The position numbers and the translations under genes are program-made. From the NCBI GenBank assembly GCA_035491875.1, contig DATJKB010000744.1, positions 919 to 64,918 of the forward strand: a stretch of DNA of 64,000 bases, in the 5' to 3' direction. Source of the stretch: Pyrinomonadaceae bacterium. GTDB taxonomy: Bacteria; Acidobacteriota; Blastocatellia; Pyrinomonadales; Pyrinomonadaceae. Below are positions 15,398 through 51,989 of the stretch, piece by piece. The notes below the pieces were generated by a model. That model was not told the origin of the DNA and did no database searches. It saw only the letters and a list, made by a program, of their open reading frames with translations. Each line of letters opens with the position of its first letter. The stretch's first letter is position 1.

Positions 15398-16234
15398 CTA
15401 CTGACGTTTCACCAATCGACAATGCTTGTCCAGTAAACCTATCGCAGTTAGTTCCGCTCGTTGCAGAACAGTTAGATTAACATGCGGATAGCGTTCCGCG
15501 AATCTTTTCAACTTCTTTGCGTTCTCTTCAGTCATCCGTCCTTTGATCTCCACGTAGCGATCTTCGGCAGGCAAGTAGAAGTCTGGTGTGTAGCTCGTGC
15601 CGCCAAGATTGAACCAGCGTGGCTCGTACCGCCAATCAATTCCCTGTTCATCCAACCACTCTGCGTAAGCCACTTCCCAACGCGAGCGCATGAGATATTT
15701 TCCTTTTGGGCCATCGTAGTGCGCTCGATACTTGTTGTAGTCCGGGATACGTCCAACCTGTTTGGCCGACATCGCCGCCACTGAGGCGTTGGTAAATATA
15801 GTTAAGCCTTTGTTCCATGACGACTGTCCTTTTCGGGCCTCTGACAACTTTTGTCGATGTGTCTCGCTGCGTGGTTTTGCGTTTGCGGCTTGCAGATTGG
15901 CTAAGTGCTCAGGGGTAAACTCCTTGCCTTTTTGGCTCGCTGAACTTTTGGCACCAATAGCTTGCCGTTCTTCCTCGGAGCGCTTGGCCCATACTTCCTT
16001 GAGTACCTTTACCCGTAACGCTTTGGTTTCCGGTCTACTAAGACCGTGGGCTATCGCCTTACCGCGTGCTATCGGATCGCGAAAACGAGCTGGCTTTCCC
16101 TTTTTCGTTCTCGTATTGGCAGCCGCAACCGCTTCTCGCCACTTACTACTATTACGACGCCCTTCCGCTAGCTTCTCAGCGTGTTCCCCGGACGTATGAT
16201 TCAAAGATCTGCATCTGGTACATCTTTCTTCCAT
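15398..16234 (-). CDS. Free-standing homing endonuclease: NUMOD3 repeats + PD-(D/E)XK nuclease domain
   Basis: Three to four NUMOD3-like repeats (RSETHRQKLSEARKGQSSWNKG, FTPEHLANLQAANAK, others). The C-terminus reads RWEVAYAEWLDEQGIDWRYEP...YTPDFYLP...YVEIKG, giving E...PD...EIK. The start was moved to ATG 16234 behind AAGGAGGAA; the track starts at GTG 16267. Confidence 0.65.
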   Translation of the reverse strand: MEERCTRCRSLNHTSGEHAEKLAEGRRNSSKWREAVAAANTRTKKGKPARFRDPIARGKAIAHGLSRPETKALRVKVLKEVWAKRSEEERQAIGAKSSASQKGKEFTPEHLANLQAANAKPRSETHRQKLSEARKGQSSWNKGLTIFTNASVAAMSAKQVGRIPDYNKYRAHYDGPKGKYLMRSRWEVAYAEWLDEQGIDWRYEPRWFNLGGTSYTPDFYLPAEDRYVEIKGRMTEENAKKLKRFAERYPHVNLTVLQRAELTAIGLLDKHCRLVKRQ

Positions 16235-16257
16235 CTTGTAATTCCTCCTTGAAATGG

Positions 16258-16287
16258 AGTATACCACAAGATGCTACATTGCCGCAA
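16258..16287 (-). promoter_or_regulatory. Extended -10 promoter for the NUMOD3 endonuclease gene
   Basis: On the minus strand: TTGCGG-N18 (last two nt TG)-TATACT. The core GTGGTATACT is nearly identical to the promoter of the neighbouring HNH gene. Confidence 0.4.
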
Positions 16288-16290
16288 ACA

Positions 16291-16815
16291 CTATCCTGAT
16301 ATCGTATAACTCACGGAAAGTGTATTTGAAGTTGATTTGTTTATTGTGCTGAACGTCACGTGTGACAGGAGCGTGCCTGCCGTCGCACTCGACGTATTAA
16401 ACAACCCCGCCTCACCCAGCGTCCCGGTTGCTTCATCAGTGGCGAAACTCACCTCTGCGCGCCACGACGGAGGATTGCTTGTCAGATTCGTAGTAGTGAA
16501 CGTGCCGATCGTCTTGCGTCCCACTGACGCAGTGATTTCAGATCCGAGCGCAGTGTCGCTTGTCGCTGGCGCAGTAGTCGAAGTTCCAACTGCAATCGCA
16601 TTGATCGAGTTCGTCTGGTTGGAGAATGAACCAATCTTCTCCAGTACCCAGCGGCGTCCAGCGGTCACTACCGTGTTCATGCGCATACGATCGCCCACTG
16701 GCTCACCGTTGAAGGCGTTGTGGAGTTGCATCTCAATACAGCCCCGGAGTAGATACGTATCGCCCATTTCTTCAACGACAGCGGGTTGAATAGTGTCTTT
16801 TTTCTTCCGACTCAT
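16291..16815 (-). CDS. Hypothetical structural-type protein (174 aa)
   Basis: Track ORF with AGGAG 9 nt upstream. Ser/Thr/Gly-rich and predicted beta-rich. It lies between the two endonuclease genes. Confidence 0.5.
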   Translation of the reverse strand: MSRKKKDTIQPAVVEEMGDTYLLRGCIEMQLHNAFNGEPVGDRMRMNTVVTAGRRWVLEKIGSFSNQTNSINAIAVGTSTTAPATSDTALGSEITASVGRKTIGTFTTTNLTSNPPSWRAEVSFATDEATGTLGEAGLFNTSSATAGTLLSHVTFSTINKSTSNTLSVSYTISG

Positions 16816-17724: not shown

Positions 17725-18054
17725 TCAATCTTGCCTGCCGTAAATTGCTTCCATTGTGTGTTTATCGTTTGCGCGAGCCTGTTTTAACATCAACTCAATC
17801 GTGCCATCGGGATCTGGACGTTTAAGGTATTTGGCTTTCCACGTCTCAGTACAAGCACACGGTTCCTTACCGCCGCACCACCACTGATGCTGTTTTAGGC
17901 TAGGAATAATAGTTCCTGCCAAGATTTCTAGATCGTCCGGCTCACATGGACCTTCATGGGCCATAGGCAAATCGCAAAGCAATGAAAATCTCCATCCGTT
18001 TCGTTCGATGCTTGGTAGCCGCTTCCCGCATTTTAGGCTGCTAAATTTGCTCAC
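17725..18054 (-). CDS. Hypothetical Cys-rich protein (109 aa)
   Basis: Track ORF with a 4-nt overlap to the portal stop. Confidence 0.45.
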   Translation of the reverse strand: MSKFSSLKCGKRLPSIERNGWRFSLLCDLPMAHEGPCEPDDLEILAGTIIPSLKQHQWWCGGKEPCACTETWKAKYLKRPDPDGTIELMLKQARANDKHTMEAIYGRQD

Positions 18055-19463
18055 GAAACCAACCTCGCTGTTGAAATTGCCGGACTAGGTTTTACCCCAC
18101 TTGTGCCGTTATCGCTTGCACCGTTTCCATTGTTACTCGCAGTTGCGGTCGTAGTCGCAGGAGCAGCGGCATGAGCTGGCGCAGTGGCATCGCGCGCCTG
18201 CGTTGCCCCACCTCTCGGGACGAAATATACGTCGTCAGCCTCAGTTGCGTCCAGTCCGATCGCTCGACGGTACTCAGCGCGAGTAATTCCGCCGCCTAAA
18301 TAATCCTCGCGAATACGTTTGTGACGAGCAGTTTCATCCTCTTGCAGTGCCTTCACATCGGCAGTGTCGTAGAAGACGTAGTGGTTAGGCTGGTTATCAA
18401 AATCGGGCAGCAGGTGATGCGTGAGAGTCTCAGCAAGGTGCTTCCAAAGAGGGACTAGGTAGTTATTAGTAAACCTTTGCTGGCTCTGGAATACATTATT
18501 ATAAATCGAATGCTCCCCCGCCGAGCCAAACTCCATTACCGTACCCGGAATCCCCTTCACCGCGCAAAATCTCTCTTCAGCGAGATAGCGTTGTAGTCTC
18601 AGGTCTAATTCCTGTGGCGAAAACTGCAACTTCTTCGGCTCAGCGTTGGTGATGATCGGCGGCGTGAATTTCTTATCACCGGAGATCTGCGCCATCAGCA
18701 GCTTCTTGATGTTGTTGATGTCTTCCTGCCCGAGTTCGCCAGCTTTATTGTCGATGGACAGGAAGTAGCGGAACCCAGCATCATTCGCCATCAAATTCGC
18801 ATACCAGTTTGCCGATTCGTTGTCACCGAAGATCTCGCGGAAGATGGCGGGGGTGGACGCGAGTCCATAGCGGGGGTTGGCGGGGTCTAGGCCATTGCGG
18901 AAGTGGATGACATCAGTGACAGGGATCGGCAACCAGTCTGGGCCGCGTTTAACTTCATAGTGGGAGATGAAGGACGATCCGTCTTCGGGGTACCTAGCCC
19001 GGATCGTACCATGCGGCTCATACCAAAGTTCTTTCACCCGCCCTTGATCGTTGCGCTCTTTGCGAATGTAAGCGTTGTCGGTCATCACCCAACTGGTGGA
19101 GACGGCTTTGAGCATCGTCGGGGCATCGTAGAAGTCGTTGGGCCGATACCAGAGTTTGACGAGGGAGTGGTTATCGACGATCACTTCCTCGTTCCCTTGC
19201 TGCTCGCGGACTTGCAGCTCAGCTTCAGAGGCAGAGTTACCCACTGCGGTTACTGCGGCCATCATCAACGACGACATCGTGAGATCGCCGACCGCGGAGG
19301 CGTAGTCGCGCTCAGTTCCTTTGAAGCCGATGAGGAGTTGATTAACCGCTTGATCGAAGTCGGCCCATGTCGGGAAGACGGAGACGAGGTTGGGTGGGGA
19401 AGGCGCAGGGAAGCGGAGTGACTTCCATGCAGCGGACATTCGATCTAGAAAGTTGAGGGCCAT
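18051..19463 (-). CDS. Portal protein (HK97 family)
   Basis: 470 aa with a typical portal-family core (...WYRPNDFYD...ANLMANDAGFRYFLS...). The C-terminal tail is Ala/Thr/Ser-rich. It lies upstream of the protease-capsid block. Confidence 0.9.
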   Translation of the reverse strand: MALNFLDRMSAAWKSLRFPAPSPPNLVSVFPTWADFDQAVNQLLIGFKGTERDYASAVGDLTMSSLMMAAVTAVGNSASEAELQVREQQGNEEVIVDNHSLVKLWYRPNDFYDAPTMLKAVSTSWVMTDNAYIRKERNDQGRVKELWYEPHGTIRARYPEDGSSFISHYEVKRGPDWLPIPVTDVIHFRNGLDPANPRYGLASTPAIFREIFGDNESANWYANLMANDAGFRYFLSIDNKAGELGQEDINNIKKLLMAQISGDKKFTPPIITNAEPKKLQFSPQELDLRLQRYLAEERFCAVKGIPGTVMEFGSAGEHSIYNNVFQSQQRFTNNYLVPLWKHLAETLTHHLLPDFDNQPNHYVFYDTADVKALQEDETARHKRIREDYLGGGITRAEYRRAIGLDATEADDVYFVPRGGATQARDATAPAHAAAPATTTATASNNGNGASDNGTSGVKPSPAISTARLVS

Positions 19464-19706: not shown

Positions 19707-19907
19707 TTAGTCCCAGTCGTCAGCTTCTTCAAAAGTAACCTTTAGACCAAGTTTTTGCCACAGCGGATCAAGGGAACCGGAACGAAGGTCCATGTCGTCA
19801 GAGCGAATCTTTGTTAAACTCTCCCCGTCCAGCAGCACGTCATATTCAGGTTCCTCAAGGTACGAACCATCATCTTCAGGTATCGGTCGAAAGATAAGTT
19901 CCCGCAT
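19707..19907 (-). CDS. Hypothetical acidic protein (66 aa)
   Basis: Track ORF 19707..19940. The start was moved to ATG 19907, which overlaps the upstream stop (TGATG). Confidence 0.4.
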   Translation of the reverse strand: MRELIFRPIPEDDGSYLEEPEYDVLLDGESLTKIRSDDMDLRSGSLDPLWQKLGLKVTFEEADDWD

Positions 19908-20176
19908 CACCGCTCCTTCACCAGCACGTAGATCGTCCAATCATCCTCTCTAGCACCCGCTGTCTTGACGTGATTCGTGATTGCGTAGCGCTTGCCTTTC
20001 ACTCCACCCGACAACCAGACGACGGTGTTAGAGGGATCGAGAATCGCGTCCGATTCGACCATGATGCCGCTGTCAGCGGAGAACACACTCGTCTGAATCG
20101 TATCCCCTGCAAGATAAGTAGACCAATCGAAGGGATAGTCGAGCACGGCGTTTGGATCTTGGATGAAGGGGGTCAT
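19907..20176 (-). CDS. Conserved phage protein of unknown function
   Basis: 89 aa. The pattern DPNAVLDYPFDWSTYLAGDTIQTS...VWLSGGVKGKRYAITNHVKTAGAREDDWTIYVLV recurs in many tailed-phage structural regions. Confidence 0.5.
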   Translation of the reverse strand: MTPFIQDPNAVLDYPFDWSTYLAGDTIQTSVFSADSGIMVESDAILDPSNTVVWLSGGVKGKRYAITNHVKTAGAREDDWTIYVLVKER

Positions 20177-20370: not shown

Positions 20371-20542
20371 GTATTATCCCCTTCCCTACTGTGACGGGAG
20401 TCCAATCGGATAGTACTACATCGCTTGCGTCTTGCTTGTCCGCGAACCAGATGCCAAAGTCGTAGACATCCTTGTACGCTTCGTCGTCAACTTCAGCGCC
20501 GTACTGCTTAATCAGGTCACGCAACTCTGCGGGGTCGATCAT
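20363..20542 (-). CDS. Hypothetical acidic protein (59 aa)
   Basis: Hand-found: MIDPAELRDLIKQYGAEVDDEAYKDVYDFGIWFADKQDASDVVLSDWTPVTVGKGIIRG. It has an ATGA overlap with the transferase gene stop. Confidence 0.35.
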   Translation of the reverse strand: MIDPAELRDLIKQYGAEVDDEAYKDVYDFGIWFADKQDASDVVLSDWTPVTVGKGIIRG

Positions 20543-21858
20543 TTCTTTTTACTCTTGGACGAAGACTTAGTTGCCACCTTCCGCTTCTTGTACCCATTAC
20601 TCGACAAACTCATTTCATGATGGGCCTTTCCGTTGTTGGTAAACCGTCTGACTGATTTGGGTGGCTGGCCCAGACTCGGCAAGTCAGCGGGTGGCTGTCG
20701 CCATGCTCTACAATAGATATTGTAACCGGACAACTGAAAATCAACCCGTTTAAACTCGCGCTCTTTTAGCATAACTTCCAAAGTCTGTGGAGTAAAGAAG
20801 AATTGATGGAAGTTCTCTTTGTAGGTTTGGGCTCCCAGAACGACATTCATCACGTCGTCATCGACCTTGTTCTGCATGATGCGCTCTGCGGCCCATTGGA
20901 TATTCGGGAGCACGAGTCGCAGTTCACCGTCTGGTTTGAGTACGCGAACCGCTTCGTCCATGACTTTGACGACATCCGCACGGGAGAAATGTTCAAACAC
21001 GTGCGAACTATAGACTTGATCAAATTCCCCGGTCGCGAATGGTAGTTGACGCAGATCCGCACGGTAGTCAGGGTTAACATCCTCGCGAATATCGACTGTC
21101 AATACGTCACCTTCATCAGACTGGTATTTACTCTCACCACAGCCTAAGTCGAGAATCTTTTTCTGACCCTTGACTGCGGTAGTGGCGCGGCGCATCGGCG
21201 GGGAGTCGGCTGGGAGCGTCGTCGCAGTCATCGTGTTGTAATCCCAGTGTTCGCACAGGACCGCGCCGTCAGCGTAGATCTTAAACCCTGCGTCTCTTAC
21301 CAGTTTTGAAAACCAAAGATCTTCCGTCCACACTTCTGCTTTCGTCTTGCCGTCGAAGTATGCGCTGAGATCGTCAACTGTGCGAAACCAAGGCTTAGGC
21401 AAGTGCTTGAAGACTTCCGTTTTGATCAACGTGCAGCCCATCGCAATGCCATCAACTTCAAATAGCTCGCCCGCTTTCCAATCGAAGTATGGACCAGCGC
21501 CCATACCGCGAAACACCATCGGCATTGCAGGCGGAGATTTATGGCAGTAGATACCGCCGATGACCATTGCCTCTGGCCTGTTCTCGGCTTGATAGATGAG
21601 CTGACGCAAAGTGTGGCCCGGTGCAACGACATCTTCGTCAAGGGTAAAAAGGTAACGGGCTCCGTTTGCGATCGCCTGCTCAGCGAAGTAATTGCGCGCT
21701 TCTGCAATCGGCGCTTTCCACGTATGGCAAGTGATGACGTTGTAGCACATGGGCGGATGGAGGGCCGCGTAACCGAAGGCCCACTGCGGCACGATGGGCC
21801 GACCGCTGAGGGGAATACCAATCATTAGACCAGTGAACATTGGGTAGTGTCCAGACAT
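20539..21858 (-). CDS. Bifunctional GT-A glycosyltransferase / class I SAM methyltransferase fusion
   Basis: 439 aa. The N-terminal half has a DxD-type motif (LFTLDEDVV) and TEDLWFSKLVRDAGFKIY..CEHW. The C-terminal half has methyltransferase motif I ILDLGCGES, then FDQVYSSHVFEHF and LKPDGELRLVLPN. The tail is basic. Confidence 0.8.
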   Translation of the reverse strand: MSGHYPMFTGLMIGIPLSGRPIVPQWAFGYAALHPPMCYNVITCHTWKAPIAEARNYFAEQAIANGARYLFTLDEDVVAPGHTLRQLIYQAENRPEAMVIGGIYCHKSPPAMPMVFRGMGAGPYFDWKAGELFEVDGIAMGCTLIKTEVFKHLPKPWFRTVDDLSAYFDGKTKAEVWTEDLWFSKLVRDAGFKIYADGAVLCEHWDYNTMTATTLPADSPPMRRATTAVKGQKKILDLGCGESKYQSDEGDVLTVDIREDVNPDYRADLRQLPFATGEFDQVYSSHVFEHFSRADVVKVMDEAVRVLKPDGELRLVLPNIQWAAERIMQNKVDDDVMNVVLGAQTYKENFHQFFFTPQTLEVMLKEREFKRVDFQLSGYNIYCRAWRQPPADLPSLGQPPKSVRRFTNNGKAHHEMSLSSNGYKKRKVATKSSSKSKKK

Positions 21859-22330: not shown

Positions 22331-22521
22331 CGAGATTCATCTCCGTCATGATCGCGATACTTGGTAATCTGAACAACTCCACCTTCAAATAACTGATCGT
22401 CTTCCGATGAATCGCCAACCCCATACTCAGCTAATTGTTGAAAGTGGGCCGCAAGCCGCTTGAAAGCATCGTCAATGTTCTCAGCCTCAAAGGTCGCATT
22501 GGCAAACAAGCAAAATTTCAT
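22327..22521 (-). CDS. Hypothetical acidic protein (64 aa)
   Basis: Track ORF with 4-nt overlaps. Confidence 0.4.
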   Translation of the reverse strand: MKFCLFANATFEAENIDDAFKRLAAHFQQLAEYGVGDSSEDDQLFEGGVVQITKYRDHDGDESR

Positions 22522-22775
22522 AGCTCCTCATAATCCCGCTTCAATGTCTCCCTTGTCGTCGTGTATTCCTCACTACAATCCTTCACCTTCACGAGAAAGA
22601 GGTCGTTGGGATCGTCTGAGGATGGATCAACCAAGCACCGCACGAAGACGATTGCCGGATTGCGCAAGTAGCGCTTTGTGCAGGAGTGGTTCTCAGTTGC
22701 GACCTGACCGCAGAGGCCGCAGTTGAGTGTGATTGAGACGCCATCAGCTACTGCGAGTTTGTCGGAGAAGGCCAT
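22518..22775 (-). CDS. Hypothetical protein (85 aa)
   Basis: Track ORF with a 4-nt overlap. Confidence 0.4.
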   Translation of the reverse strand: MAFSDKLAVADGVSITLNCGLCGQVATENHSCTKRYLRNPAIVFVRCLVDPSSDDPNDLFLVKVKDCSEEYTTTRETLKRDYEEL

Positions 22776-23590: not shown

Positions 23591-26500
23591 CTAATTCAGC
23601 CTTGCTCGTTCGATTCTCGTCATTCTGTCACTCGGCGGCACTACAATTCCTGTTCGTTTAGCTGGGATCGTCACCCTCGCGCGGGATGGTACTACAATAT
23701 GTCGTTTAGCGCTAGGGGTGTAGGGATAGCGGAGGTCGAAATAGTGGTCAGTAAGTGTGATCGTATCGGTGAGTTGCAACTCGATGCGTAGTTCATTGCC
23801 GAGCGAGATCGAGATCGCGTCGGTCAGTAGCAACGAATCACTCGGCGCCTCGTCCAAGTCCGGCCCGCGCAGGTCAATGGCGACACTGTCTGAGATGACG
23901 AGCGTGTCGTCGAACTCAATGAACCCAGCGCTGAACTTCGCGAGCGAGTCAGTGAGTGCGAGCGCGTCGCTGAGTTGAAGCTGGCCTGTACCAAACAAGG
24001 AAACTGAGTCAGTGAAGATTGGCCCATTATCCGCGATAATCAGGGTTAGACCAGGGGTAAACAGGGCGGAATCAGCTAATAATGCAACATTATCCGCAAG
24101 TGAGAGGATGTGGGTGAGAGTGGTGGTGGACGAGTCGGTGAGGGCGATCGAATCAGACGTAGCGAGTTCGTAACCCAATTGCAACTGAACACTATCGGTG
24201 AGTGTGAGTGAGTCAGCAAGAGACTGATTATAGCTGAGTGTCGTTGCGATGGAATCCGTCAGCGTAAAACTATCAGCGAGTTGCGTGCGATATGACAGGT
24301 TGAGTTGTACGTCATCAGTTAGAGTGAGGTTGTCCGAGAACGCGAGATTGTAACTCACACGCAGGGAGATATTATCGCTGAGCGAGAGCACATCCGCATT
24401 CGCAATCTCATAACCCACCTGCAACTGGATTGAATCACCGAAGACGAGAGCGTCAGTCAGTGGGAGCAAGTGGTTCAAAGTGGGAAAGATCGAGTCCGAG
24501 AGTGCGAAGAGATCGCTAAAGGAAGTTCGCAAACCTTCGATCAATGCCGAGGAATCGTCGAGATTCGCCACCGTGTCGGCGACGGAGAGCAAGTAGTCGA
24601 GTCTGAGTAAAACTTCATCAGTGAGCGGTGTAAGCGCATCTGTCACGCCAACCTCGCGCAACGGCCCCTGTGGCGCACTAGTGAGGATGTCGTCCATGAG
24701 GAAACTGGCGTCGTCGGTGAGAGCGAGGCCATAGCCGAGGACGAGGGAATCGATTAACGTGATGGAGTCACTGAAGCTCAGTACTTCGCCAAGCGTGAAA
24801 GTGAGTGAATCGCTGAGAGTGTTGAGCGAGTCGGTAAAGGTTAGCCGTTGTTCAAGTCGCTGCGTCTCATTATCGAGAAGATTGTCGATTGAGTCGGCGA
24901 ATTGCAGCTCATAGGCGAGTCGGAGCGAGACGTTGTCTGCGAGAACTAGCGAATCACTGAAATTGAGGAGTTCGTTAAGTCTGACTGAGATCGAGTCGGT
25001 AAAGGTTGCAACGTTATCCGTGAATAGTAGTCCGAAGCCGAGTGCGACCTCGTCAGTAAGGACGAGTAGGTCTGAGAAAGCGCGCAACTGGTCTAGTCGA
25101 TGTGACTCAGCGTCCGTGAGCAGAAGTGAATCACTCGCGCTCTCTGCATAGCCGAGGGTGATGACAACGCTATCAATAATGATGAGTGAATCGCTGAAGT
25201 CGAGTAAGTGATCGAGTTGCGTGGAGATCGAGTCAGTAAGAATCGCAGCAGTATCTGCGAAAATTAACCCAATACCCAACGCAAGTGAGTCAGTGAGTGT
25301 GATCGTCTCCGTGAAAGTGAATCGATAACTTAGCTCGTTAGTCTCCGCGTCAGTCAGAACGAGAGTGTCAGTCGCTTGTTCCTCGTAGCCTAGTGTCGTT
25401 AACTCACTGTCGGTGAGAGTGAGCGAGTCGGAGAGTGCTGCTAGCTGGCCCAACTGGAGACTGACACTGTCATTAAACGACTGGAGCGAGTCGGAAAATT
25501 GGGCGAGATAGCCGAGTTGAACCGCAACGCTATCAGTGAGCGAGACTGAATCAACGCAACTCAATCCATGTCCCAGCGCGCACGAATCATCCAGTGACAG
25601 TTGATCGTCTAGCTCCAGCTCCAGCACGCTGCTGATGACATGCAGGTGGAGAGTGAAGGCGTCAGTGAGAGCGAGAGAGTCTGAAGTACGCAACTCTCCG
25701 TCACTGTGCAGATTGAGAGTCTCGGTCAGTGCATCCAGCGCCTCTGTTATCAGCAACCCGTAACCAATCGCGAAAGGCGTAGTCGCACCCTCTTGAACTT
25801 GAGAGATTGATAAATGCGCAATCGCCGAATCGCCACTGTCGAACGTTCCATTGATGGCGATCCGCAATATCGTCGAGGTAAAGACGTGCTCGACAGTGGT
25901 ATTGTTCGCAGGCCAATTAGCGGCGGTATGGATCGTCCCCGTGGCGTCGGCGAATTCTCCGGCGTTGGTATCTATCGGGCTAAAGGTAATGAACGGCGTG
26001 TTGTTGTCTCGTACTTCAATATAGCTCCGCGCACTGGCGCTGAAGTCACCAATAGCCAGACCGACGCGATACGTACCAGCGGTAGGAAGATCGAGACGGA
26101 AGACGTACGTAGCCTCTTCTTCGTTAGTAGCAAGGTGCGCTCCGGCCAGTCTCGGATCAGTGCCAGTGGAGCGATCGACACGGGCTATTCCCGGTATTTG
26201 ATAACCGAAATTAAAGTCATCCCGGGTAACAGGATAGGTATTCGATAGTACGTAGGTCTGATCTGCGCCATCGGTGACGAAGGTAGAAGTGGAGCGAAAG
26301 TTGAATCCGTGCGTTAGCTCGGGAATCGAGTCCGATAGAGTGATTAAGTCTGAAAAAGCAAGCTGGATAGTAACGAGGCGAGATTCATCGTCCGTGAGCG
26401 GTTCGAGTGAATCGGTGAGGGCGAGAGTTATGCCAAGTTGGATAGTTGCGGCATCAGCCGTGTTGAATGAGTTGTCTGCGAGCGCCAGTCGTTGCGAGAG

Positions 26501-27451
26501 GAGGAGTTGATGCGAGTCGGCCCAGTTAGCAGCTTCCGTATCAGCGAGCGCAAGTAAGTAGCCAAGTAGTTGTGCATTCGCATCTGAGAGTGCAGCGAGA
26601 GTATCGGCGAGAGTTGTTTGAGTGCCGAGGAGACGCGCTTCTCCGTCAGTGAGGGTTACTGTGTCAGTCGCAGCGACACTGTAGCCGAGGACGATTTGAG
26701 CAGTGTCAGTGAGAGCGTTGAGCGTGTCCGCGTGGAGATTGCCATAACCCAGCCCACGCGCATCAGCGAGATTATTGACATCGTCCGAAGCTGACTGCGT
26801 GAGCGGCACGGTAATGTCGATCTCCATCGCGTGCGCGCAGAACTGGGTGGATGACGCTGCCCCAAAAGTGATCGTCGTACCAGTGAAGCCTGACGCACGT
26901 GAGGCGGATTCAAGGGCAACTGTGTCATTAATCTGGCTCGTGTCGAGAATTTCAGTCCAGTTAGTCGGGGGAGTTGTCGTCGTGTCGGCTGAGCCTTGCG
27001 CGACGAGTGTGCCGTTGTTGGTGAGCGCGGCTTGATTCAGGGTTGGAGCCGCAGTCCCAGCCGCTTGGTTGTTCTGCGATCCTTTGCTACGGACTGCGTT
27101 TGCTCCGGTGCGTGTGACTCCCGTGCAGGGAACGACGTGGATCGTGCCGGAGGTGTTGCTGCCAGTTGCAACTGTGATCGTCGTCGCAGTCGTATTCACC
27201 ATCAAGGCCGTGCGAATGAACACGCTGAGTCGATAGTTCACTGTGGAGATAGCAAAGTTGAGCGTGTCGATGAGGTCGTAGGTGCCGGAATTGTCGTCTG
27301 AGCAAGTGGGAGTGTCGTTCGTGTTCGCGGCGACGCAACAGTAGACGACGACGAGATCTCCCACTGCCGGAGTGAAAGTCGCAGTGCGATTCCCCGTGCC
27401 GGAGGACGAGCCACCAGATGCTACCCCAGCCGTGCGTACCGCGAAGGCCAT
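23591..27451 (-). CDS. Giant repeat protein (1286 aa): N-terminal globular domain, central beta-sandwich-like domain, ~40 copies of a 20-aa SDSLxLTD repeat; probable fibre/host-recognition protein
   Basis: Single long ORF. Residues 1-215 are Thr/Ala/Gly-rich and globular. Repeats occupy residues 222-378. A non-repetitive domain occupies 383-560. Repeats occupy 585-1236. The C-terminal tail is basic. Confidence 0.8.
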   Translation of the reverse strand: MAFAVRTAGVASGGSSSGTGNRTATFTPAVGDLVVVYCCVAANTNDTPTCSDDNSGTYDLIDTLNFAISTVNYRLSVFIRTALMVNTTATTITVATGSNTSGTIHVVPCTGVTRTGANAVRSKGSQNNQAAGTAAPTLNQAALTNNGTLVAQGSADTTTTPPTNWTEILDTSQINDTVALESASRASGFTGTTITFGAASSTQFCAHAMEIDITVPLTQSASDDVNNLADARGLGYGNLHADTLNALTDTAQIVLGYSVAATDTVTLTDGEARLLGTQTTLADTLAALSDANAQLLGYLLALADTEAANWADSHQLLLSQRLALADNSFNTADAATIQLGITLALTDSLEPLTDDESRLVTIQLAFSDLITLSDSIPELTHGFNFRSTSTFVTDGADQTYVLSNTYPVTRDDFNFGYQIPGIARVDRSTGTDPRLAGAHLATNEEEATYVFRLDLPTAGTYRVGLAIGDFSASARSYIEVRDNNTPFITFSPIDTNAGEFADATGTIHTAANWPANNTTVEHVFTSTILRIAINGTFDSGDSAIAHLSISQVQEGATTPFAIGYGLLITEALDALTETLNLHSDGELRTSDSLALTDAFTLHLHVISSVLELELDDQLSLDDSCALGHGLSCVDSVSLTDSVAVQLGYLAQFSDSLQSFNDSVSLQLGQLAALSDSLTLTDSELTTLGYEEQATDTLVLTDAETNELSYRFTFTETITLTDSLALGIGLIFADTAAILTDSISTQLDHLLDFSDSLIIIDSVVITLGYAESASDSLLLTDAESHRLDQLRAFSDLLVLTDEVALGFGLLFTDNVATFTDSISVRLNELLNFSDSLVLADNVSLRLAYELQFADSIDNLLDNETQRLEQRLTFTDSLNTLSDSLTFTLGEVLSFSDSITLIDSLVLGYGLALTDDASFLMDDILTSAPQGPLREVGVTDALTPLTDEVLLRLDYLLSVADTVANLDDSSALIEGLRTSFSDLFALSDSIFPTLNHLLPLTDALVFGDSIQLQVGYEIANADVLSLSDNISLRVSYNLAFSDNLTLTDDVQLNLSYRTQLADSFTLTDSIATTLSYNQSLADSLTLTDSVQLQLGYELATSDSIALTDSSTTTLTHILSLADNVALLADSALFTPGLTLIIADNGPIFTDSVSLFGTGQLQLSDALALTDSLAKFSAGFIEFDDTLVISDSVAIDLRGPDLDEAPSDSLLLTDAISISLGNELRIELQLTDTITLTDHYFDLRYPYTPSAKRHIVVPSRARVTIPAKRTGIVVPPSDRMTRIERARLN
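23744..25699 (-). repeat. In-frame tandem ~60-nt (19-21 aa) repeats, block 2
   Basis: Unit consensus: [ST]D[ST]LxLTD + 12 residues with alternating hydrophobics (for example SDSLTLTDSELTTLGYEEQA, TDTLVLTDAETNELSYRFTF). It includes a ~79-aa four-unit super-repeat duplicated at 24899..25375. Confidence 0.85.
26318..26788 (-). repeat. In-frame tandem ~60-nt repeats, block 1
   Basis: About 8 more degenerate units of the same family (ADTLNALTDTAQIVLGYSVA, TDTVTLTDGEARLLGTQTTL, others). Confidence 0.7.
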
Positions 27452-27555
27452 GAGTGGGAATGTAGCATGGAATTAGCGATGAAGTTGAGGTATAATGCGC
27501 GGCATCTTCCAATCCCTATGGAACCAACTAGGGCCAGCTTGCTTTTCCGACAGGT

Positions 27556-29958: not shown

Positions 29959-30031
29959 TTGCGATAGCAGGAGTCGAACCTGCGACCTCAAGATTATAAG
30001 TCTTGCGCTCTGCCAGTTGAGCTATGTCGCG
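29959..30031 (-). tRNA. tRNA with anticodon UAU (Ile, AUA), class I
   Basis: Fold: D arm GCTC-AACTGGCA-GAGC, anticodon arm CAAGA-CTTATAA-TCTTG (anticodon 29998..29996), variable AGGTC, T arm GCAGG-TTCGACT-CCTGC. Acceptor CGCGACA/TATCGCA has two C-A mismatches (1-72 and 6-67). A73. No encoded CCA. Confidence 0.7.
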
Positions 30032-30274: not shown

Positions 30275-31006
30275 CTAGCCTAACACGTATTCAAATAACG
30301 TGTCAGCGATCTTTTGCCTCGGAGCTTCGACCTCGTTGGCCTTGCCGCGTGCTAACTTGACCGCGCTAAGCAGTTCCTCAATCTTCGTAATCAGTTCCTC
30401 TTTCTGCGGCACGGGAAGCGCCGCCGACAGCTTAGTCTGGTCCCAGTAGCCGACTGTTACGTCTTTAGTTAGTTGGGCCACCTGAGCCGGGTGTTCCTTC
30501 GTCGCTTCTGAGACAGTCTTAAAGTCAACTATCTTCTCGGTACGGTGGCGAGTTGTAATATCCGTACGCCACTGTCCGGTTGATGGGTCTACTTTCCACT
30601 CCTCGGATTCGTCCAACGTAGGCAGTTTCTCGACGTAGTTACGAAAGTGGTCCAACTGCTTGCTTAGGAATAGCAAATGAGTAACAGGTACCGCTATAAG
30701 AATCACCTGACCGTTAACTTCCACATCGGCCCGCGCTTCCATGTTGGCCCAGTCCTTCGTCGCAGTCAGGTCGATCAATTCAGTCTTGGCTTTGATGAAC
30801 TTGTCAATTTCTTTACGCGCGTCTAACTGTACTCGCTTATGTTCAGGAGGTAGCGGTTCACCGCCTTCGTCCTTTGGTCGATACGTGCGAGCTAGTCCGT
30901 TAAACGAATCGGGCTTTAACGCTTCCCGTTCCAGCATTGCGGTGACAGATCCTATCTTGTTCTTCGCGTCTTCTTCGATAGCGATGATTTGATGTAGTTT
31001 TGGCAT
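30275..31006 (-). CDS. Conserved hypothetical protein (243 aa)
   Basis: Track ORF 30275..31018 (TTG start). ATG 31006, behind GGAGAAGGA, is preferred. The protein is helical and charged. No motif assigned. Confidence 0.6.
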   Translation of the reverse strand: MPKLHQIIAIEEDAKNKIGSVTAMLEREALKPDSFNGLARTYRPKDEGGEPLPPEHKRVQLDARKEIDKFIKAKTELIDLTATKDWANMEARADVEVNGQVILIAVPVTHLLFLSKQLDHFRNYVEKLPTLDESEEWKVDPSTGQWRTDITTRHRTEKIVDFKTVSEATKEHPAQVAQLTKDVTVGYWDQTKLSAALPVPQKEELITKIEELLSAVKLARGKANEVEAPRQKIADTLFEYVLG

Positions 31007-31039
31007 TTCCTTCTCCAACGATTAAGATTTAGAAAAGGA

Positions 31040-32044: not shown

Positions 32045-32468
32045 AGAACTAAGTGGAAGAGAGCTTGAGCTTGAAGTAGCAAAGCGCGTCTTTAACTTTC
32101 GTTGGTTTCATTGCGAGGCAAATGAAGTCGAGCGTAACCAGTTTCTCTCACCGGGGACTGCGGAAGTATGGCGCGAACTGGGATGGGTCTTGACTGAAAT
32201 CGATGGAATGCAGGACGATCAGTTCAACGATGACATTCCGAAGTTTGCCAGATCCATTGAAGCTGCAATGCGGGTAGTTGAGAAGATGCGGGAACAGGGC
32301 TGGTCATTCGCCTGTACGTTGTACGAAGGAAAGTTGCCTTACGCATCATTCTGCAAGGGCACAGTGAAGTCGAGCAGGAATGCCGAGGCCGAGTCACTCG
32401 CGGAAGCAATCTGTCTCGCCGCTCTAGCCGCTATCGAATCTACGCATACAGCACCCGTCTCGGCCTGA
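32037..32468 (+). CDS. Phage ABA-sandwich-domain protein
   Basis: 143 aa. LSGRELELEVAKRVF..W near the N-terminus and SIEAAMRVVEKMREQGW...AESLAEAICLAALAAIE match the pattern of this phage family. The gene converges on the terminase gene end. Confidence 0.5.
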   Translation: MSEELSGRELELEVAKRVFNFRWFHCEANEVERNQFLSPGTAEVWRELGWVLTEIDGMQDDQFNDDIPKFARSIEAAMRVVEKMREQGWSFACTLYEGKLPYASFCKGTVKSSRNAEAESLAEAICLAALAAIESTHTAPVSA

Positions 32469-34839
32469 TGCTGGCTCCGTGCCATGCGAGGGCGAGGCTG
32501 ATGACGCAATTATGGACCACGATGCCATTCGCTATAAATGATCTATCTTCGGCAACTTGAAGATTATAGACCGTGCCTTCAAATTGCCGTTCGGCAATAG
32601 TCTCCACGGGAGAGCCGTAACTAACCGGAGAGAGCTTTCGGGAATGATTATTCTCGGAACCGTCTTCTTTTATCGTAACCCAATATTGAGGCTTAGTAGA
32701 CTTTTCGTAACGCCGCCGCTCATATTTTCTTACCGTTGCGTATAGCCCATTTGCGAGAGCTAGATCTCGCATTCCTAAAGCCAGTCGCGCACTTGTGGTC
32801 GCACCTATCGTGTAGCCGGGAGACTGAACCGTAACGCCGTTCGGTTGCGTTACGTGTGGAGGACGGTGCCAACCATCGCCAGCCAACCATTCATCTACCA
32901 CTGTTTTACCGTGAACTTGTAAACGGTGAAAGTAAGGCGGGAGCTGTTTCTCGCCGGAGGATGAATAACAGGTCTTCAGGGCATGCCATAATAGCTTACT
33001 GGAAAACGTTAAGGCCACGCAGTTACTTCGCGCCTTCTCCGCTCTATTAGAAATTCTCAGCAAGTTGAGATAGTAGCGAAAGTACTCAATCGAATGCACA
33101 TCTTTAACGTTAAATGCGAGGCTCATGGTCCAGCCCGAAGAATTGGAACAGTGACCATCGGCAAGAAAGCGCCCGAGCAAGCTTGCAAATCCTTCATCAA
33201 GTTGCAGTTCTCGCAACTTGATATTCACCGCGCATTTCCCATTGGTGTAAAACTCACGTTCTGTCAGTACATCGCCAACACGCAGTACTGGAGATTCAAC
33301 TACCGTTACCGCACGGTAAGATTTACGCCAGTCGCCCGGTAATACCCACTGCTCGCGTGTAAATGGACCAGAGACATCGCCGGTGTAGTCGCGGCAGACA
33401 GCCAATATTGGGTGATTGTGGCTCAGCGACAGTTCTAGCTGATTTCTAAATTTACAATCATAAAACAGGCCCGAGAAGGGCTTGGTAATCGCCCTCTCTA
33501 CGGGCATATAGCGACCGCGATGAGTAAGCACCTGATCACCGGGTTGGACTTCTTCAATTGGACGATAGCCAGTCAATGTTTTAATCAGCGTTCCCTGCGG
33601 CAAACAGTCATCGTGATAACCTTCCGGGCTCGAATATCTCAGCATCCCACTCGGCAATCTCTCAGCTTCATAGGCTTGCAATTCAGCAATCAGTACTGGG
33701 TTATCAATTATGCGCAAATCGCCTTTCTCCAACGCAAGCGCGAGCGAGTCTATCGCTTCAGCTTTAGACGCATTCGTGGTCGTAAATGGGTGGACGTTGT
33801 AGCCTTCACGCTGGAGTTGCTCAATCAGCGGAATGCCGATGGAGTTGTGCTCAGGGATGAGAGTCTTCGTCTTAAACTTCGTGGCGAGCGTGCGCAACCT
33901 CTCAATCTGCACGGTGTAGTCGATCTGATTGAAGCGATCCACGTAGACCAACTCCTTCGTCGTCACGTCAATTACACTCAGCACCGTGAAATCGTTATAC
34001 TTGCCCCAGTCGATTCCGATCAGGTAGTTATGTCCATCGAGGGCTGAGTCTTGAGCAGTGGCACAAGCTGATTCGAGCACTCGTCTAAACACTCCACCCG
34101 CGTCGTCGATGAACTCAGCCAGATACTCTTGTCGAAAGATGCGCTCCGGCAGTTCCAATCGCGCCGCTTCGATCTCTTTGTCGAGATCGGTGAGGGTAGT
34201 ATTGACCGACGACGGCATCTGCCACGAGCGCCATTCGTCTTTGAGTGGATCTTGTCCCCAGTTGTAGATCGTGCGGAAAAAGTTCGAGCCACGTGGAGTG
34301 GAGAGGAACCACGCATCACCTTGATAGTCAGTGAGAGTGGGTCGAATTGACGCTTGCCATGCATCTCCCAGATAACGCACGAGGGCTGCTTCGTCAACGA
34401 TCACCAGCTTGTACTTGCGACTTCTACCTGCGTCGGGATTGTCCAGCGACCAGCACTCCAGCACCCCTTTCGTCGAGAGTTCCAGTCGATGCTCCTGCGT
34501 GGATTTGTCCACTGTCACTGGAGCGAACACTCGTTGTAAGTCGCGCCAGCTATCTGCGAGAATCTTGTATGAGGGTGCGAACCACCCGACAGGCCAACCC
34601 GCCATGAGATAGTCGCCACTGACATCCTGACCGAATACTGACTTACCCGCGCGTCGGCCTAACGCAGCAACATTGAACCTGCGCGCTTCAGCTTTCATCT
34701 TCTTCTGCGCTTCGTGAAGAGCGGGACGAATCAACCCGCCGCCCTTGAGTCGCTGTCGCCGCGCATCCTCCAGCTTGTCCTCGATGGGCCAGAGGTGCTT
34801 GAGACGGAGGGATGGTGGGAGATTGAGATCGTCGCTCAT
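32440..34839 (-). CDS. terL: Terminase large subunit interrupted by an intein
   Basis: 799 aa. Walker A GRRAGKS and Walker B KLVIVDEA are present. The nuclease domain motifs run ...IGIDWGKYNDF... and end at GYHDD, where the intein begins. The C-extein resumes CVISLALAW. Confidence 0.9.
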   Translation of the reverse strand: MSDDLNLPPSLRLKHLWPIEDKLEDARRQRLKGGGLIRPALHEAQKKMKAEARRFNVAALGRRAGKSVFGQDVSGDYLMAGWPVGWFAPSYKILADSWRDLQRVFAPVTVDKSTQEHRLELSTKGVLECWSLDNPDAGRSRKYKLVIVDEAALVRYLGDAWQASIRPTLTDYQGDAWFLSTPRGSNFFRTIYNWGQDPLKDEWRSWQMPSSVNTTLTDLDKEIEAARLELPERIFRQEYLAEFIDDAGGVFRRVLESACATAQDSALDGHNYLIGIDWGKYNDFTVLSVIDVTTKELVYVDRFNQIDYTVQIERLRTLATKFKTKTLIPEHNSIGIPLIEQLQREGYNVHPFTTTNASKAEAIDSLALALEKGDLRIIDNPVLIAELQAYEAERLPSGMLRYSSPEGYHDDCLPQGTLIKTLTGYRPIEEVQPGDQVLTHRGRYMPVERAITKPFSGLFYDCKFRNQLELSLSHNHPILAVCRDYTGDVSGPFTREQWVLPGDWRKSYRAVTVVESPVLRVGDVLTEREFYTNGKCAVNIKLRELQLDEGFASLLGRFLADGHCSNSSGWTMSLAFNVKDVHSIEYFRYYLNLLRISNRAEKARSNCVALTFSSKLLWHALKTCYSSSGEKQLPPYFHRLQVHGKTVVDEWLAGDGWHRPPHVTQPNGVTVQSPGYTIGATTSARLALGMRDLALANGLYATVRKYERRRYEKSTKPQYWVTIKEDGSENNHSRKLSPVSYGSPVETIAERQFEGTVYNLQVAEDRSFIANGIVVHNCVISLALAWHGASIRPRRVLYA
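32509..33606 (-). mobile_element. Intein (366 aa) with LAGLIDADG-type homing endonuclease domain
   Basis: It starts CLPQGTLIKT at residue 412 (codon 33606..33604 is TGT). It ends ...ANGIVVHN (codon 32511..32509 is AAT), followed by Cys+1. Internal LLGRFLADGH and DEWLAGDGWH resemble the two LAGLIDADG motifs. Confidence 0.8.
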
Positions 34840-39831: not shown

Positions 39832-39920
39832 GCTGGCGTAGCACAATGGCAGTGCGGCGGACTTATAATCCGTAAGCCCCGGATTAGGGCGTGATGAAGG
39901 TTCGAGTCCTTCCGCCAGCA
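39832..39920 (+). tRNA. Class II (long variable arm) tRNA with anticodon UAU
   Basis: Fold: acceptor GCTGGCG/CGCCAGC 7/7, D arm GCAC-AATGGCA-GTGC, anticodon arm GCGGA-CTTATAA-TCCGT (anticodon 39864..39866), T arm GAAGG-TTCGAGT-CCTTC. The variable region is 22 nt with a GCCC/GGGC stem. A73. No encoded CCA. Confidence 0.75.
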
Positions 39921-50738: not shown

Positions 50739-51989
50739 TCATGCACGCAGCTTCAGCCCTCGATAGTAAACGTTGCCAATCTTGACTTTATGGAATCCAA
50801 GGCGTTGCATTTCTTCGGAGAAGCGGGGCGAGGCAAGGGGCTTATGGCCCGTATCGGAGCACCATTCTCGGTACATTTCATAGAGAGTTTGTGCTTGAAT
50901 TTTCCCAGTAGAATCGGCCTCACAACGCTCCTCAACAAACATCCTCGGAATATCATTGTTGATCCGATAGTGCTCAGTTGCCGCTTGAACTACGTCGGGA
51001 ATCTGGAATCGTCCGCGTTGAAGAAGTCGCTGCAATCCGATTCGCGCCCAGTTGAGGATTGCCATACCGGACACTTGAATTTCCTCTTTCACGCGCGGAT
51101 CTCGTTTGTTTTCGTCGATTGATGGGAAATGGACCAGTTTCACTCGGCGAAAGATACCAGCGCCTTTGTCATCCACTCGCGGCAGCTCATTCATCGCCCA
51201 GAGGATTTTGCACTGAGAGGCGAAAGTGACAGGATCGCGGAACTTACGATCTACGGTGACTCTCTCACCAGAAATAAGCGCGTTGACGATATGGGCGGAT
51301 TTGATGAAATGGGCGGGTTGTTCAGTCGAGATTACCAGAGTCTTGCCGGGGAGATTGGTAAGGCCGAAGTTACTTGTCTCAATATCCGATAGCCCGAGTA
51401 CTCCACACTGCGCACCTAACATCGACTCTAATCCGGTGATAAATGTAGATTTGCCGCCACCGGGAGGGCCATACAACCAAACGGCTATCTCATACTTTGT
51501 TAATCCAGTGATTGCATATCCCGCAAATTCTTGCAGGAAGTTGGCTACTTCTTCGCCGACGACTTCAAACAGAAACTTTAACCAACAATCCGAAGTTGCG
51601 TCAGGATCATAAGCAAAAGGCAACTTCGAGGTTCGATAATTCTCAGGCAAGTGCCCACGACGTTCTCCGGTCAGGAAGTCAAGTGTGCAATCGTCAAATA
51701 TAAGCAAGCCTTTATCTCGATCGAATTGGCTGTCGGAAATAAATCTGTGAGCTTTGATAAGATTATAAAGGGAGTTGATGAGAGCATTGTCAACTTTGAT
51801 AGCTACCTGTCGTTGGCCCATTACTGATTCTTGGATCTCACGGCGAATCAGTAATTCGTGAACGACAGGCCAAACTCCATTGTCATATCTGCGCCATTCC
51901 CCGAGCCCGTAGATTGTATTTGGATAATCAGCCAGATACCTGTCGCGTAGACGGATCTGGCGTAAATCCAGTTTAGGGGATGATGGCAT
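50739..51989 (-). CDS. SF3 helicase, phage/plasmid primase P4 / D5 family C-terminal type
   Basis: 416 aa. Walker A YGPPGGGKST is present. KTLVISTEQP..., then ALISGERVTVDRKFRDP... and ILWAMNELP match this family. No primase domain is seen. Confidence 0.8.
   Translation of the reverse strand: MPSSPKLDLRQIRLRDRYLADYPNTIYGLGEWRRYDNGVWPVVHELLIRREIQESVMGQRQVAIKVDNALINSLYNLIKAHRFISDSQFDRDKGLLIFDDCTLDFLTGERRGHLPENYRTSKLPFAYDPDATSDCWLKFLFEVVGEEVANFLQEFAGYAITGLTKYEIAVWLYGPPGGGKSTFITGLESMLGAQCGVLGLSDIETSNFGLTNLPGKTLVISTEQPAHFIKSAHIVNALISGERVTVDRKFRDPVTFASQCKILWAMNELPRVDDKGAGIFRRVKLVHFPSIDENKRDPRVKEEIQVSGMAILNWARIGLQRLLQRGRFQIPDVVQAATEHYRINNDIPRMFVEERCEADSTGKIQAQTLYEMYREWCSDTGHKPLASPRFSEEMQRLGFHKVKIGNVYYRGLKLRA

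Follow-up and report, generated by a model that had tools for sequence, protein, structure and literature searches.

The 64,000-nucleotide stretch of contig DATJKB010000744.1 analysed here (the window; positions 919 to 64,918, from the Pyrinomonadaceae assembly GCA_035491875.1) carries, within a block of phage structural genes, an open reading frame (ORF) at 23591..27451 on the minus strand, which we refer to as the fibre gene. Its 1286-amino-acid (aa), 137 kDa product is best read as a long virion-surface fibre, or adhesin, of a siphovirus-like phage, anchored by its C terminus and probably held at the neck, a reading to which we assign a probability of roughly 0.6. The ATG start of the gene is supported by the MA(A/F)AVRT opening that close homologues share. 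Modular fibres are common in phages and the finding is therefore unsurprising in kind; what sets it apart is a shaft repeat that is undescribed but very common, an unusual polarity of constant and exchanged parts, and a conserved four-gene setting.

The protein is built largely from short tandem units. Autocorrelation under BLOSUM scoring, judged against shuffled sequences, revealed a 20-residue period throughout aa 585-1236 (lag 20 z=11.6, lag 40 z=7.5), with sub-lags of 6 and 14 residues at z ~7, and a 21-residue period in aa 216-382 (lag 21 z=5.2), while the N-terminal domain, the middle domain and the C-terminal tail gave no periodicity. The two periodic regions form array 1 (aa 216-382; 26306..26806, minus strand), with ~8 units of 20-21 aa, and array 2 (aa 585-1236; 23744..25699, minus strand), with ~30 units of 20 aa. 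A hidden Markov model trained on the protein's own units recovered 38 of them, 31 firmly (i-E<1e-3), with the consensus x-F-[ST]-D-[ST]-L-x-L-[TS]-D-[SD]-x-x-L-x-L-G-[YG]-x-L. Asp occupies position 4 in 30 of the 31 firm units and position 10 in 23 of them, Leu is found at positions 6, 8 and 16, with G[Y/G] at positions 17-18; when 14 family members are aligned, nearly every invariant column is an Asp, and each unit contributes two of them at spacings of 6 and 14 residues. At the DNA level, lag-60 identity within the fibre gene is 0.34, compared with 0.273 in codon shuffles (z=7.1), and Tandem Repeats Finder reported nothing at period 60, from which it follows that the repeat is old and has been kept at the protein level only. 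An earlier inspection of these letters without database searches (the sequence-only reading) had described two arrays of a 20-residue repeat with an SDSLxLTD-like core and a periodicity of about 60 nucleotides, both of which are borne out; its count of some 40 units was slightly generous.

Array 2 also carries a higher-order, four-unit period of 79-80 aa. Residues 693-771 and 772-850 are identical at 38 of 79 positions (48%; 55% at the nucleotide level), further in-register blocks of the array share 41-47% identity, and lag 79 in the protein reaches z=5.3-6.0. Each fourth unit is marked by LALGxGL, which falls in conserved columns of the family, and a lag of ~80 aa (four units) is present in most homologues (z=3.5-12.5). 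The duplicated 79-aa block that the sequence-only reading had pointed out is thus genuine, but its origin in a recent duplication private to this gene is ruled out by the family-wide occurrence of the lag. The first 79-aa copy is partly missing in most aligned homologues, so that the number of units varies among relatives, which makes gain and loss of units plausible. Array 2 is interrupted by a Pro/Gly break, TSAPQGPLREVG (aa 924-935; 24647..24682, minus strand), which is conserved in the family with the consensus IxTSAPQGPLRQVGVTDAL and may possibly act as a hinge.

The repeat, which the sequence-only reading did not recognise, is equally absent from curated libraries. The fibre protein matched no Pfam family at E<=1 and no NCBIfam family, none of the repeats in 34 diverse family representatives matched Pfam, and a search of PHROGs returned only phrog_2988 (unknown function) at E 0.02; a second group of unknown function, phrog_12240, is matched by 21 of the 34 diverse relatives. 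The whole protein found no match among all PDB chain sequences with phmmer, and the family profile (hmmsearch) found a single weak one, to the beta-helical stalk of Hap (3syj, E 4.2e-4, ~107 residues). Structures were predicted as monomers with AlphaFold2 (AF2), the N-terminal half from a 19-row alignment and the shaft (aa 585-1286) from 13 homologues. Array 1 was poorly modelled, at low confidence, and the low-confidence shaft model places three strands of 3-5 residues in each 20-residue unit, for example at 424, 444, 464 and 484. All 17 weak Foldseek neighbours of the shaft model are solenoids or beta-rich repeat proteins, mostly beta helices, with autotransporter passengers as the largest group alongside tailspikes, tapirin, an ice-binding protein, a PL6 lyase, RsaA and an RTX complex; the similarities of this low-confidence model to SepA, EspC, Hbp, Pet and EspP all lie at E>1. 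A triangular solenoid is favoured because of the three strands per unit, the weak Hap match and the solenoid character of these neighbours, and the shaft is accordingly most likely a beta solenoid whose 20-residue coils are triangular, and SD, TD and G would sit at the three corners. Two other repeat classes were considered and rejected: a quadrilateral pentapeptide-repeat helix of the A(D/N)LXX type, which also has 20 residues per coil, as the autocorrelation peaks fall at 6, 14, 20 and 40 rather than at 5, 10 and 15 and no Pfam match was obtained, and a calcium-binding RTX beta roll built from GGxGxDxUx nonapeptides, as the period is 20 rather than 9, the unit consensus holds one Gly and Pfam again gave no match.

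Two globular beta domains accompany the repeats. The N-terminal domain (aa 1-215; 26807..27451, minus strand) is beta-rich, contains 19% Thr and was modelled with a predicted local distance difference test score (pLDDT) of ~90. In the viral structure database BFVD it has 71 Foldseek matches at E<=1e-3. One of these is to a protein of 244 aa from Sinorhizobium phage phiN3 (E 1.5e-10, target TM-score (TMt) 0.66), and others are to proteins of mycobacteriophages (PP, Stubby, Shauna1 and Tweety; E 4e-7 to 4e-5) and of Gordonia phages that are named 'minor tail proteins', a name that is an annotation. The internal domain (aa 383-584; 25700..26305, minus strand) is non-repetitive and has a beta-sandwich core at aa ~440-555 (25787..26134) with pLDDT ~90. 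Its nearest solved folds appear to be carbohydrate-binding modules (CBMs) of the CBM35, CBM6 and CBM4 families together with PA14 and malectin-like domains, which make up most of the PDB Foldseek list at probabilities of 0.97-1.0, TMt 0.37-0.50 and E 0.02-0.17; these matches are tentatively assigned to the middle domain by the length of their alignments (~105-130 columns), as the Foldseek output names no model domain. A Thr-rich globular N terminus and an embedded non-repetitive domain had both been anticipated from the letters alone, and both are real, the confident fold of the latter being limited to its core. These CBM-like and minor-tail-like domains, the strand pattern of the units and the weak Hap similarity lend indirect support to the earlier proposal of a beta shaft that presents binding domains.

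Both domains occur well beyond the repeat protein. The N-terminal domain is found at the N terminus of repeat-less proteins, inside other proteins and as stand-alone proteins of 220-250 aa, and the internal domain is found alone in proteins of 190-225 aa and within a 2050-aa protein that bears NPCBM_assoc. One stand-alone N domain is encoded on a 348-kb contig of a Pyrinomonadaceae metagenome-assembled genome (MAG) in a prophage-like baseplate cluster (L005; L numbers denote the loci compared), directly after Baseplate_J, Tail_P2_I and a 712-aa gene that occupies the place of a tail-fibre gene, and a second stand-alone copy sits in a tail-fibre-like cluster. Clavibacter phage CN1A was considered as a cultured carrier of the repeat and set aside, since it has no repeat and only the N terminus of its gene 51 resembles the N domain. 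In that phage (L017, 34500..41950) the N terminus in question belongs to a phosphodiesterase, and the gene flanks others annotated as an SGNH-hydrolase 'head decoration' protein and a 'tail fiber' protein.

Comparison of homologues gives the protein a polarity that the sequence-only reading had overlooked, in which the C terminus stays constant while the N terminus is exchanged. Shaft and C-terminal tail are common to the 14 close homologues, and their N-terminal heads, compared by the first 150 residues of each protein, fall into at least six unrelated types. The tail itself (aa 1237-1286; 23594..23743, minus strand) is strongly basic, with an isoelectric point (pI) of 11.5 against 4.05 for the very acidic protein without its last 50 residues, and carries two V-V-P-x3-R-x-T motifs. 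It is 49-76% identical in all 14 close homologues that carry it, across head types, with the V-x4-R(-T) motif present in 2-5 copies and a pI of 10.4-11.9 in the close family. This tail is presumably the virion anchor and the N domain presumably the distal head, and the N-terminal and internal domains would be the glycan-binding parts of the molecule.

The surroundings of the fibre gene favour a role in the virion. Read along the minus strand, the window holds the large terminase gene (TerL), a DUF7873 gene, small ORFs, the fibre gene, further small ORFs, a fusion of a GT2-like glycosyltransferase (GT) with a methyltransferase (MTase), an 89-aa ORF and the portal gene, and continues with a 174-aa ORF, a NUMOD endonuclease, an S78 protease, an HK97-type capsid protein and the tail genes; the major tail protein and tape measure are encoded on the same strand as the terminase, portal, protease and capsid genes. 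The 89-aa protein (19907..20176, minus strand) is a homologue of the immunoglobulin (Ig)-like collar protein gp77 of phage GP4, matching PF23148 (E 4.3e-22, score 78.9 for a cutoff of 27 bits) and PDB chain 8jou_D (E 1.9e-4), and its pI is 4.5. According to published descriptions of the GP4 structure, gp77 is a 93-aa Ig-like protein of which 15 copies ring the head-to-tail adaptor and mediate the attachment of fibres (PMC11445570), and Bas63 has a homologous collar-whisker complex (PMC12609058). By analogy, we propose that the 89-aa protein may form a docking ring for the fibre. A conserved partner of the gp77 type speaks for a neck or collar site, or for a fibre adaptor in a generic sense, more than for attachment to the capsid shell, and the neck is the most likely mount because the adaptor family is structurally known there and because its gene adjoins the portal gene.

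Two further genes travel with this pair. The GT2-like/class I S-adenosylmethionine (SAM) MTase fusion (439 aa; 20539..21858, minus strand) has an invariant LDEDVV and a DxD motif; it matches Methyltransf_11 (E 1.8e-12) and, weakly and below cutoff, Glycos_transf_2 (E 1e-3), and its family profile matched only methyltransferases, and no GT, in the PDB. Its gene is present in nine of the 11 repeat-protein loci, and in the 50,697 phage records that we searched it has one weak partial match, a near-absence from cultured phages that is in line with the absence of the repeat protein there. The 174-aa beta protein (16291..16815, minus strand) matches phrog_5417 (E 1e-19) and the 'tail fiber protein' group phrog_4176 (E 2.9e-9); Pfam gave no match, nor did a search of the PDB with the protein's own profile. 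Much better conserved than the genes around it, the protein shows 85-95% identity among close relatives, 75% in L007 (4903..5433) and 30% in L013, and a 79% identical copy lies on a 2.2-kb contig (L018, 1021..1521) binned to a Pyrinomonadaceae MAG.

This four-gene module (fibre, 174-aa protein, GT/MTase and gp77-like protein) is conserved across three lineages that differ in their portals or capsids, with a PF04860 portal in the group to which the window belongs, Portal_Mu in L007 and SU10_MCP in L013. The order fibre, GT/MTase, gp77-like protein, portal is kept in the five close relatives L001, L002, L003, L009 and L010, and the genes also occur together in L007 and L013, whose backbones are unrelated. 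In L007 the repeat protein is 30% identical, the gp77-like gene starts 4 bases after it, and the GT/MTase (58% identical) and 174-aa protein genes lie upstream of it; in L013 the repeat-protein gene is directly followed by that of the 174-aa-like protein and then by the GT/MTase-like and gp77-like genes. By a single-sequence tblastn search, gp77-like genes are present in only 77 of the 50,697 phage records, where they adjoin 'minor tail protein' genes. Among close relatives of the window's phage, identities are 83-93% for the portal, 70-87% for the capsid protein, 67-88% for the gp77-like protein and 56-89% for the GT/MTase. The fibre, at only 38-57%, is the fastest-diverging conserved gene of the block, which is the pattern expected of a determinant of host range or host interaction.

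Taken together, these features are compatible with a mechanism in which the constant C-terminal tail would dock the fibre on the particle, most likely on a ring that the co-inherited gp77-like adaptor would form where head and tail meet, as in GP4. From there the shaft would extend as a beta solenoid of three strands per 20-residue coil, with its two invariant Asp residues and Gly at the corners, and the swappable N-terminal and internal domains would bind glycans of the host surface, so that the phage would at first attach reversibly, ahead of any commitment by the tail tip. The GT2-like/methyltransferase may modify the fibre or its Ser/Thr-rich repeats. That enzyme's genetic linkage suggests that the fibre, or something that the fibre touches, is glycosylated, although the GT assignment is weak. 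A bolder version, which we regard as improbable, joins the fibre, GT/MTase, 174-aa protein and gp77-like collar into a horizontally mobile glyco-fibre cassette whose enzyme would both glycosylate and methylate Ser/Thr beside the invariant Asp to produce a sugar-coated solenoid neck fibre. If true, such a glyco-fibre would fit, by way of its own collar, into phages whose portals and capsids are unrelated, and phages would thereby have an equivalent of the glycosylated autotransporter adhesins.

Several observations weigh against a neck-held virion fibre as read here. The whole fibre and a distant relative, P0092, found no match in the 50,697 phage records by tblastn, a null to which the BLAST low-complexity filter may contribute, the non-repetitive domains being likewise unmatched; with no cultured relative in those records, the protein's presence on the virion, like its oligomeric state, is something we infer. 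No sequence similarity to the GP4 chains in the PDB was found with either phmmer or the family profile. The shaft model has a mean pLDDT of 44.6 and is useful for strand spacing only, Foldseek returned no significant match for it, and the CBM-like matches of the internal domain all lie at E>=0.02. In L011, L012 and the short contig L014 there is no gp77-like gene in the available DNA, and in cluster L mycobacteriophages the gp77-like gene and minor tail genes follow the tape measure in a tail-tip cluster, so that the adaptor by itself leaves the neck site unfixed. The C-terminal tail is acidic in L007, and charge complementarity between tail and adaptor is therefore not general. Finally, no Shine-Dalgarno-like sequence precedes the start of the fibre gene (27452..27473); AGGAG-like sites precede the neighbouring capsid protein, GT/MTase and 174-aa genes.

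One alternative that we consider unlikely is a capsid (head) fibre, which would hold on to the vertices or hexamer centres of the shell by its basic C-terminal tail, leaving the gp77-like protein to serve another appendage. T4 Hoc is a precedent for a C-terminal domain that anchors projecting N-terminal domains, and the C-terminal anchor polarity of the fibre resembles Hoc more than it does classical tail fibres. The gene lies in the head block; the sequence-only reading, which correctly placed it between TerL and the portal, had suggested a head fibre or another virion appendage on that basis, and in L013 the repeat gene closely follows the capsid gene. The suggestion gains no specific support from the comparison of loci: the steady partner of the fibre is related to gp77, the fibre-tail adaptor of GP4, and not to a capsid protein, Pfam and PHROGs detect no Ig-like or known decoration domain in the fibre, and the occurrence of the module with three capsid/portal types is better explained by docking on its own co-transferred adaptor.

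We give similarly little credence to a side tail fibre at the tail tip or baseplate whose gene has been displaced from the tail module, the gp77-like protein then being a tail-tip adaptor. The mycobacteriophage arrangement just described, in which a gp77-like gene lies among the minor tail genes just after the tape measure, would suit it, as would the 'minor tail protein' fold of the N domain and the stand-alone N-domain homologues that follow baseplate genes. In seven of our loci, however, the portal gene directly follows the gp77-like gene, which is thus remote from the genes of the tape measure and tail tip, and the solved GP4 precedent puts the adaptor around the head-to-tail adaptor (PMC11445570). 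Rhodococcus phage Madraxi (L016, 1..9277) likewise has its adaptor and 'minor tail' genes beside the terminase, with gp77-like gene 2 and 'minor tail proteins' 3, 5 and 6 preceding it.

Least credible of all is a protein outside the virion surface (one that acts in or on the infected cell, for example as a surface adhesin, an exclusion factor or a substrate or scaffold of the GT/MTase, or an internal protein packaged by means of its basic tail), which would suit a start codon without a ribosome-binding site and a basic tail that could in principle bind DNA, but which is at odds with an N-terminal sequence that shows neither a signal peptide nor a membrane segment, with the lack of an autotransporter barrel, with cassette swapping like that of receptor-binding proteins in the fastest-diverging gene of the block, with tight linkage to a fibre adaptor and a tail-fibre-like protein, and with domains held in common with tail-module proteins.

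The favoured neck-held fibre can be set beside several known systems. It has in common with GP4 and Bas63 a protein of the gp77 family, whose gene in the window lies beside the portal gene and is co-inherited with that of the large fibre-like protein; in GP4 and Bas63, according to published reports, an Ig-like collar at the head-tail junction carries the fibres or whiskers (PMC11445570, PMC12609058). It differs in that a search of PDB chains shows no homology between the fibre and fibre I, fibre II or the rope protein of GP4, and in that GP4 is a podophage whereas the phage of the window has a long tail and a tape measure. Like the tailspikes of Ackermannviridae and Stf of lambda, the protein combines a constant anchor and a shaft with exchangeable heads, for binding or catalysis, and with divergence that is fast beside that of the other virion genes, and its repeat-protein relatives carry lectin or hydrolase domains. 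In contrast to those systems the polarity is reversed, with a constant C and a swapped N terminus, the gene lies outside the tail module, and the shaft repeat is outside the fibre repeat families described in Pfam and NCBIfam.

Autotransporters such as Hap and the SPATEs may resemble the fibre, whose repeats measure ~20 residues and, in the low-confidence model, hold three short strands per unit; the weak Hap match points the same way. Membership of that class was rejected: a hydrophobic core like that of a signal peptide is missing from the N terminus, MAFAVRTAGVASGGSSSGTGN, the protein ends in a basic tail of 50 aa instead of a beta-barrel translocator, and no Pfam match was found at E<=1; the fibre gene also differs from them in lying in a phage structural block. 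The ~19-residue repeats of the autotransporters AIDA-I and TibA are modified by dedicated glycosyltransferases, and a dedicated GT-like enzyme is encoded beside the fibre gene. Virus-encoded glycosylation of virions is known for mycobacteriophage capsids and tails, and A064R of chlorovirus PBCV-1 is a GT-GT-methyltransferase. The window's GT-like/SAM methyltransferase fusion, which lies in the structural block and is co-inherited with a putative Ser/Thr-rich surface protein, recalls these cases, with the difference that the GT assignment is weak here (the Pfam match falls below cutoff and the PDB matches are to methyltransferases only).

Other features of the window complete the setting of the gene. 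TerL (799 aa; 32440..34839, minus strand) is interrupted between its ATPase and nuclease parts by an intein (Hint_2 E 3.9e-7, Intein_splicing E 7e-5); L003 and L010 carry an intein in the portal (~860 aa) instead of in TerL. Between terminase and fibre lies a full-length DUF7873 protein (30275..31018, minus strand; E 6.7e-87), for which no counterpart was found in the related loci examined. The portal (18051..19463, minus strand) is identified by a library match to PF04860, and a NUMOD3/endonuclease I-like ORF (15398..16267, minus strand), probably a homing endonuclease, separates the portal-side genes from the prohead protease. Downstream of the fibre gene, an 85-aa Cys-containing protein (22518..22775, minus strand) is conserved, with homologues in L001, L002, L003, L009 and L010 (57-76% identity) and also in L007, and matches no family. 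Two tRNA-Ile genes with anticodon TAT lie on opposite strands (29959..30031, minus; 39832..39920, plus), and the replication arm encodes a family A DNA polymerase with an N-terminal domain of the uracil-DNA glycosylase superfamily and a D5-like primase/helicase (56336..59011, plus; 50739..51989, minus).

Two weak, independent pointers, the stand-alone N domain in the prophage-like baseplate cluster of L005 and the 174-aa protein on the L018 contig, suggest Pyrinomonadaceae (Acidobacteriota) as the host group, of which, to our knowledge, few phages have been described. The reach of the repeat itself is far wider. A word-indexed search found 33 relatives, all metagenomic, IMG/VR yielded three loci only, and the shaft profile found no relative in a genome collection; an exhaustive profile search returned 4688 clusters (50% identity) at E<=1e-3, of which 1693 remain at E<=1e-10 and 161 at E<=1e-30. 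The matched proteins range from ~100 to 3900 aa, and accessory domains in the 34 diverse representatives include Laminin_G_3 (in four proteins), a Kelch propeller, a GH5 cellulase, EPTP and LVIVD. In the cultured actinophages Madraxi and CN1A, too, fibre-like genes lie within the head block or ahead of it.

In summary, our analysis exposes an annotation gap, in that 4688 clusters share a repeat that is absent from curated libraries and has no solved structure, and with a model of the repeat, annotation would reach thousands of large (500-3900 aa) phage proteins that are now called 'hypothetical'. The linkage to a gp77-type gene extends the collar-and-fibre principle of GP4 and Bas63 to long-tailed environmental phages and suggests an appendage module that brings its own docking ring. 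The polarity of the protein, with a constant C terminus and a swapped N terminus, matters for the prediction of host range from fibre sequences.

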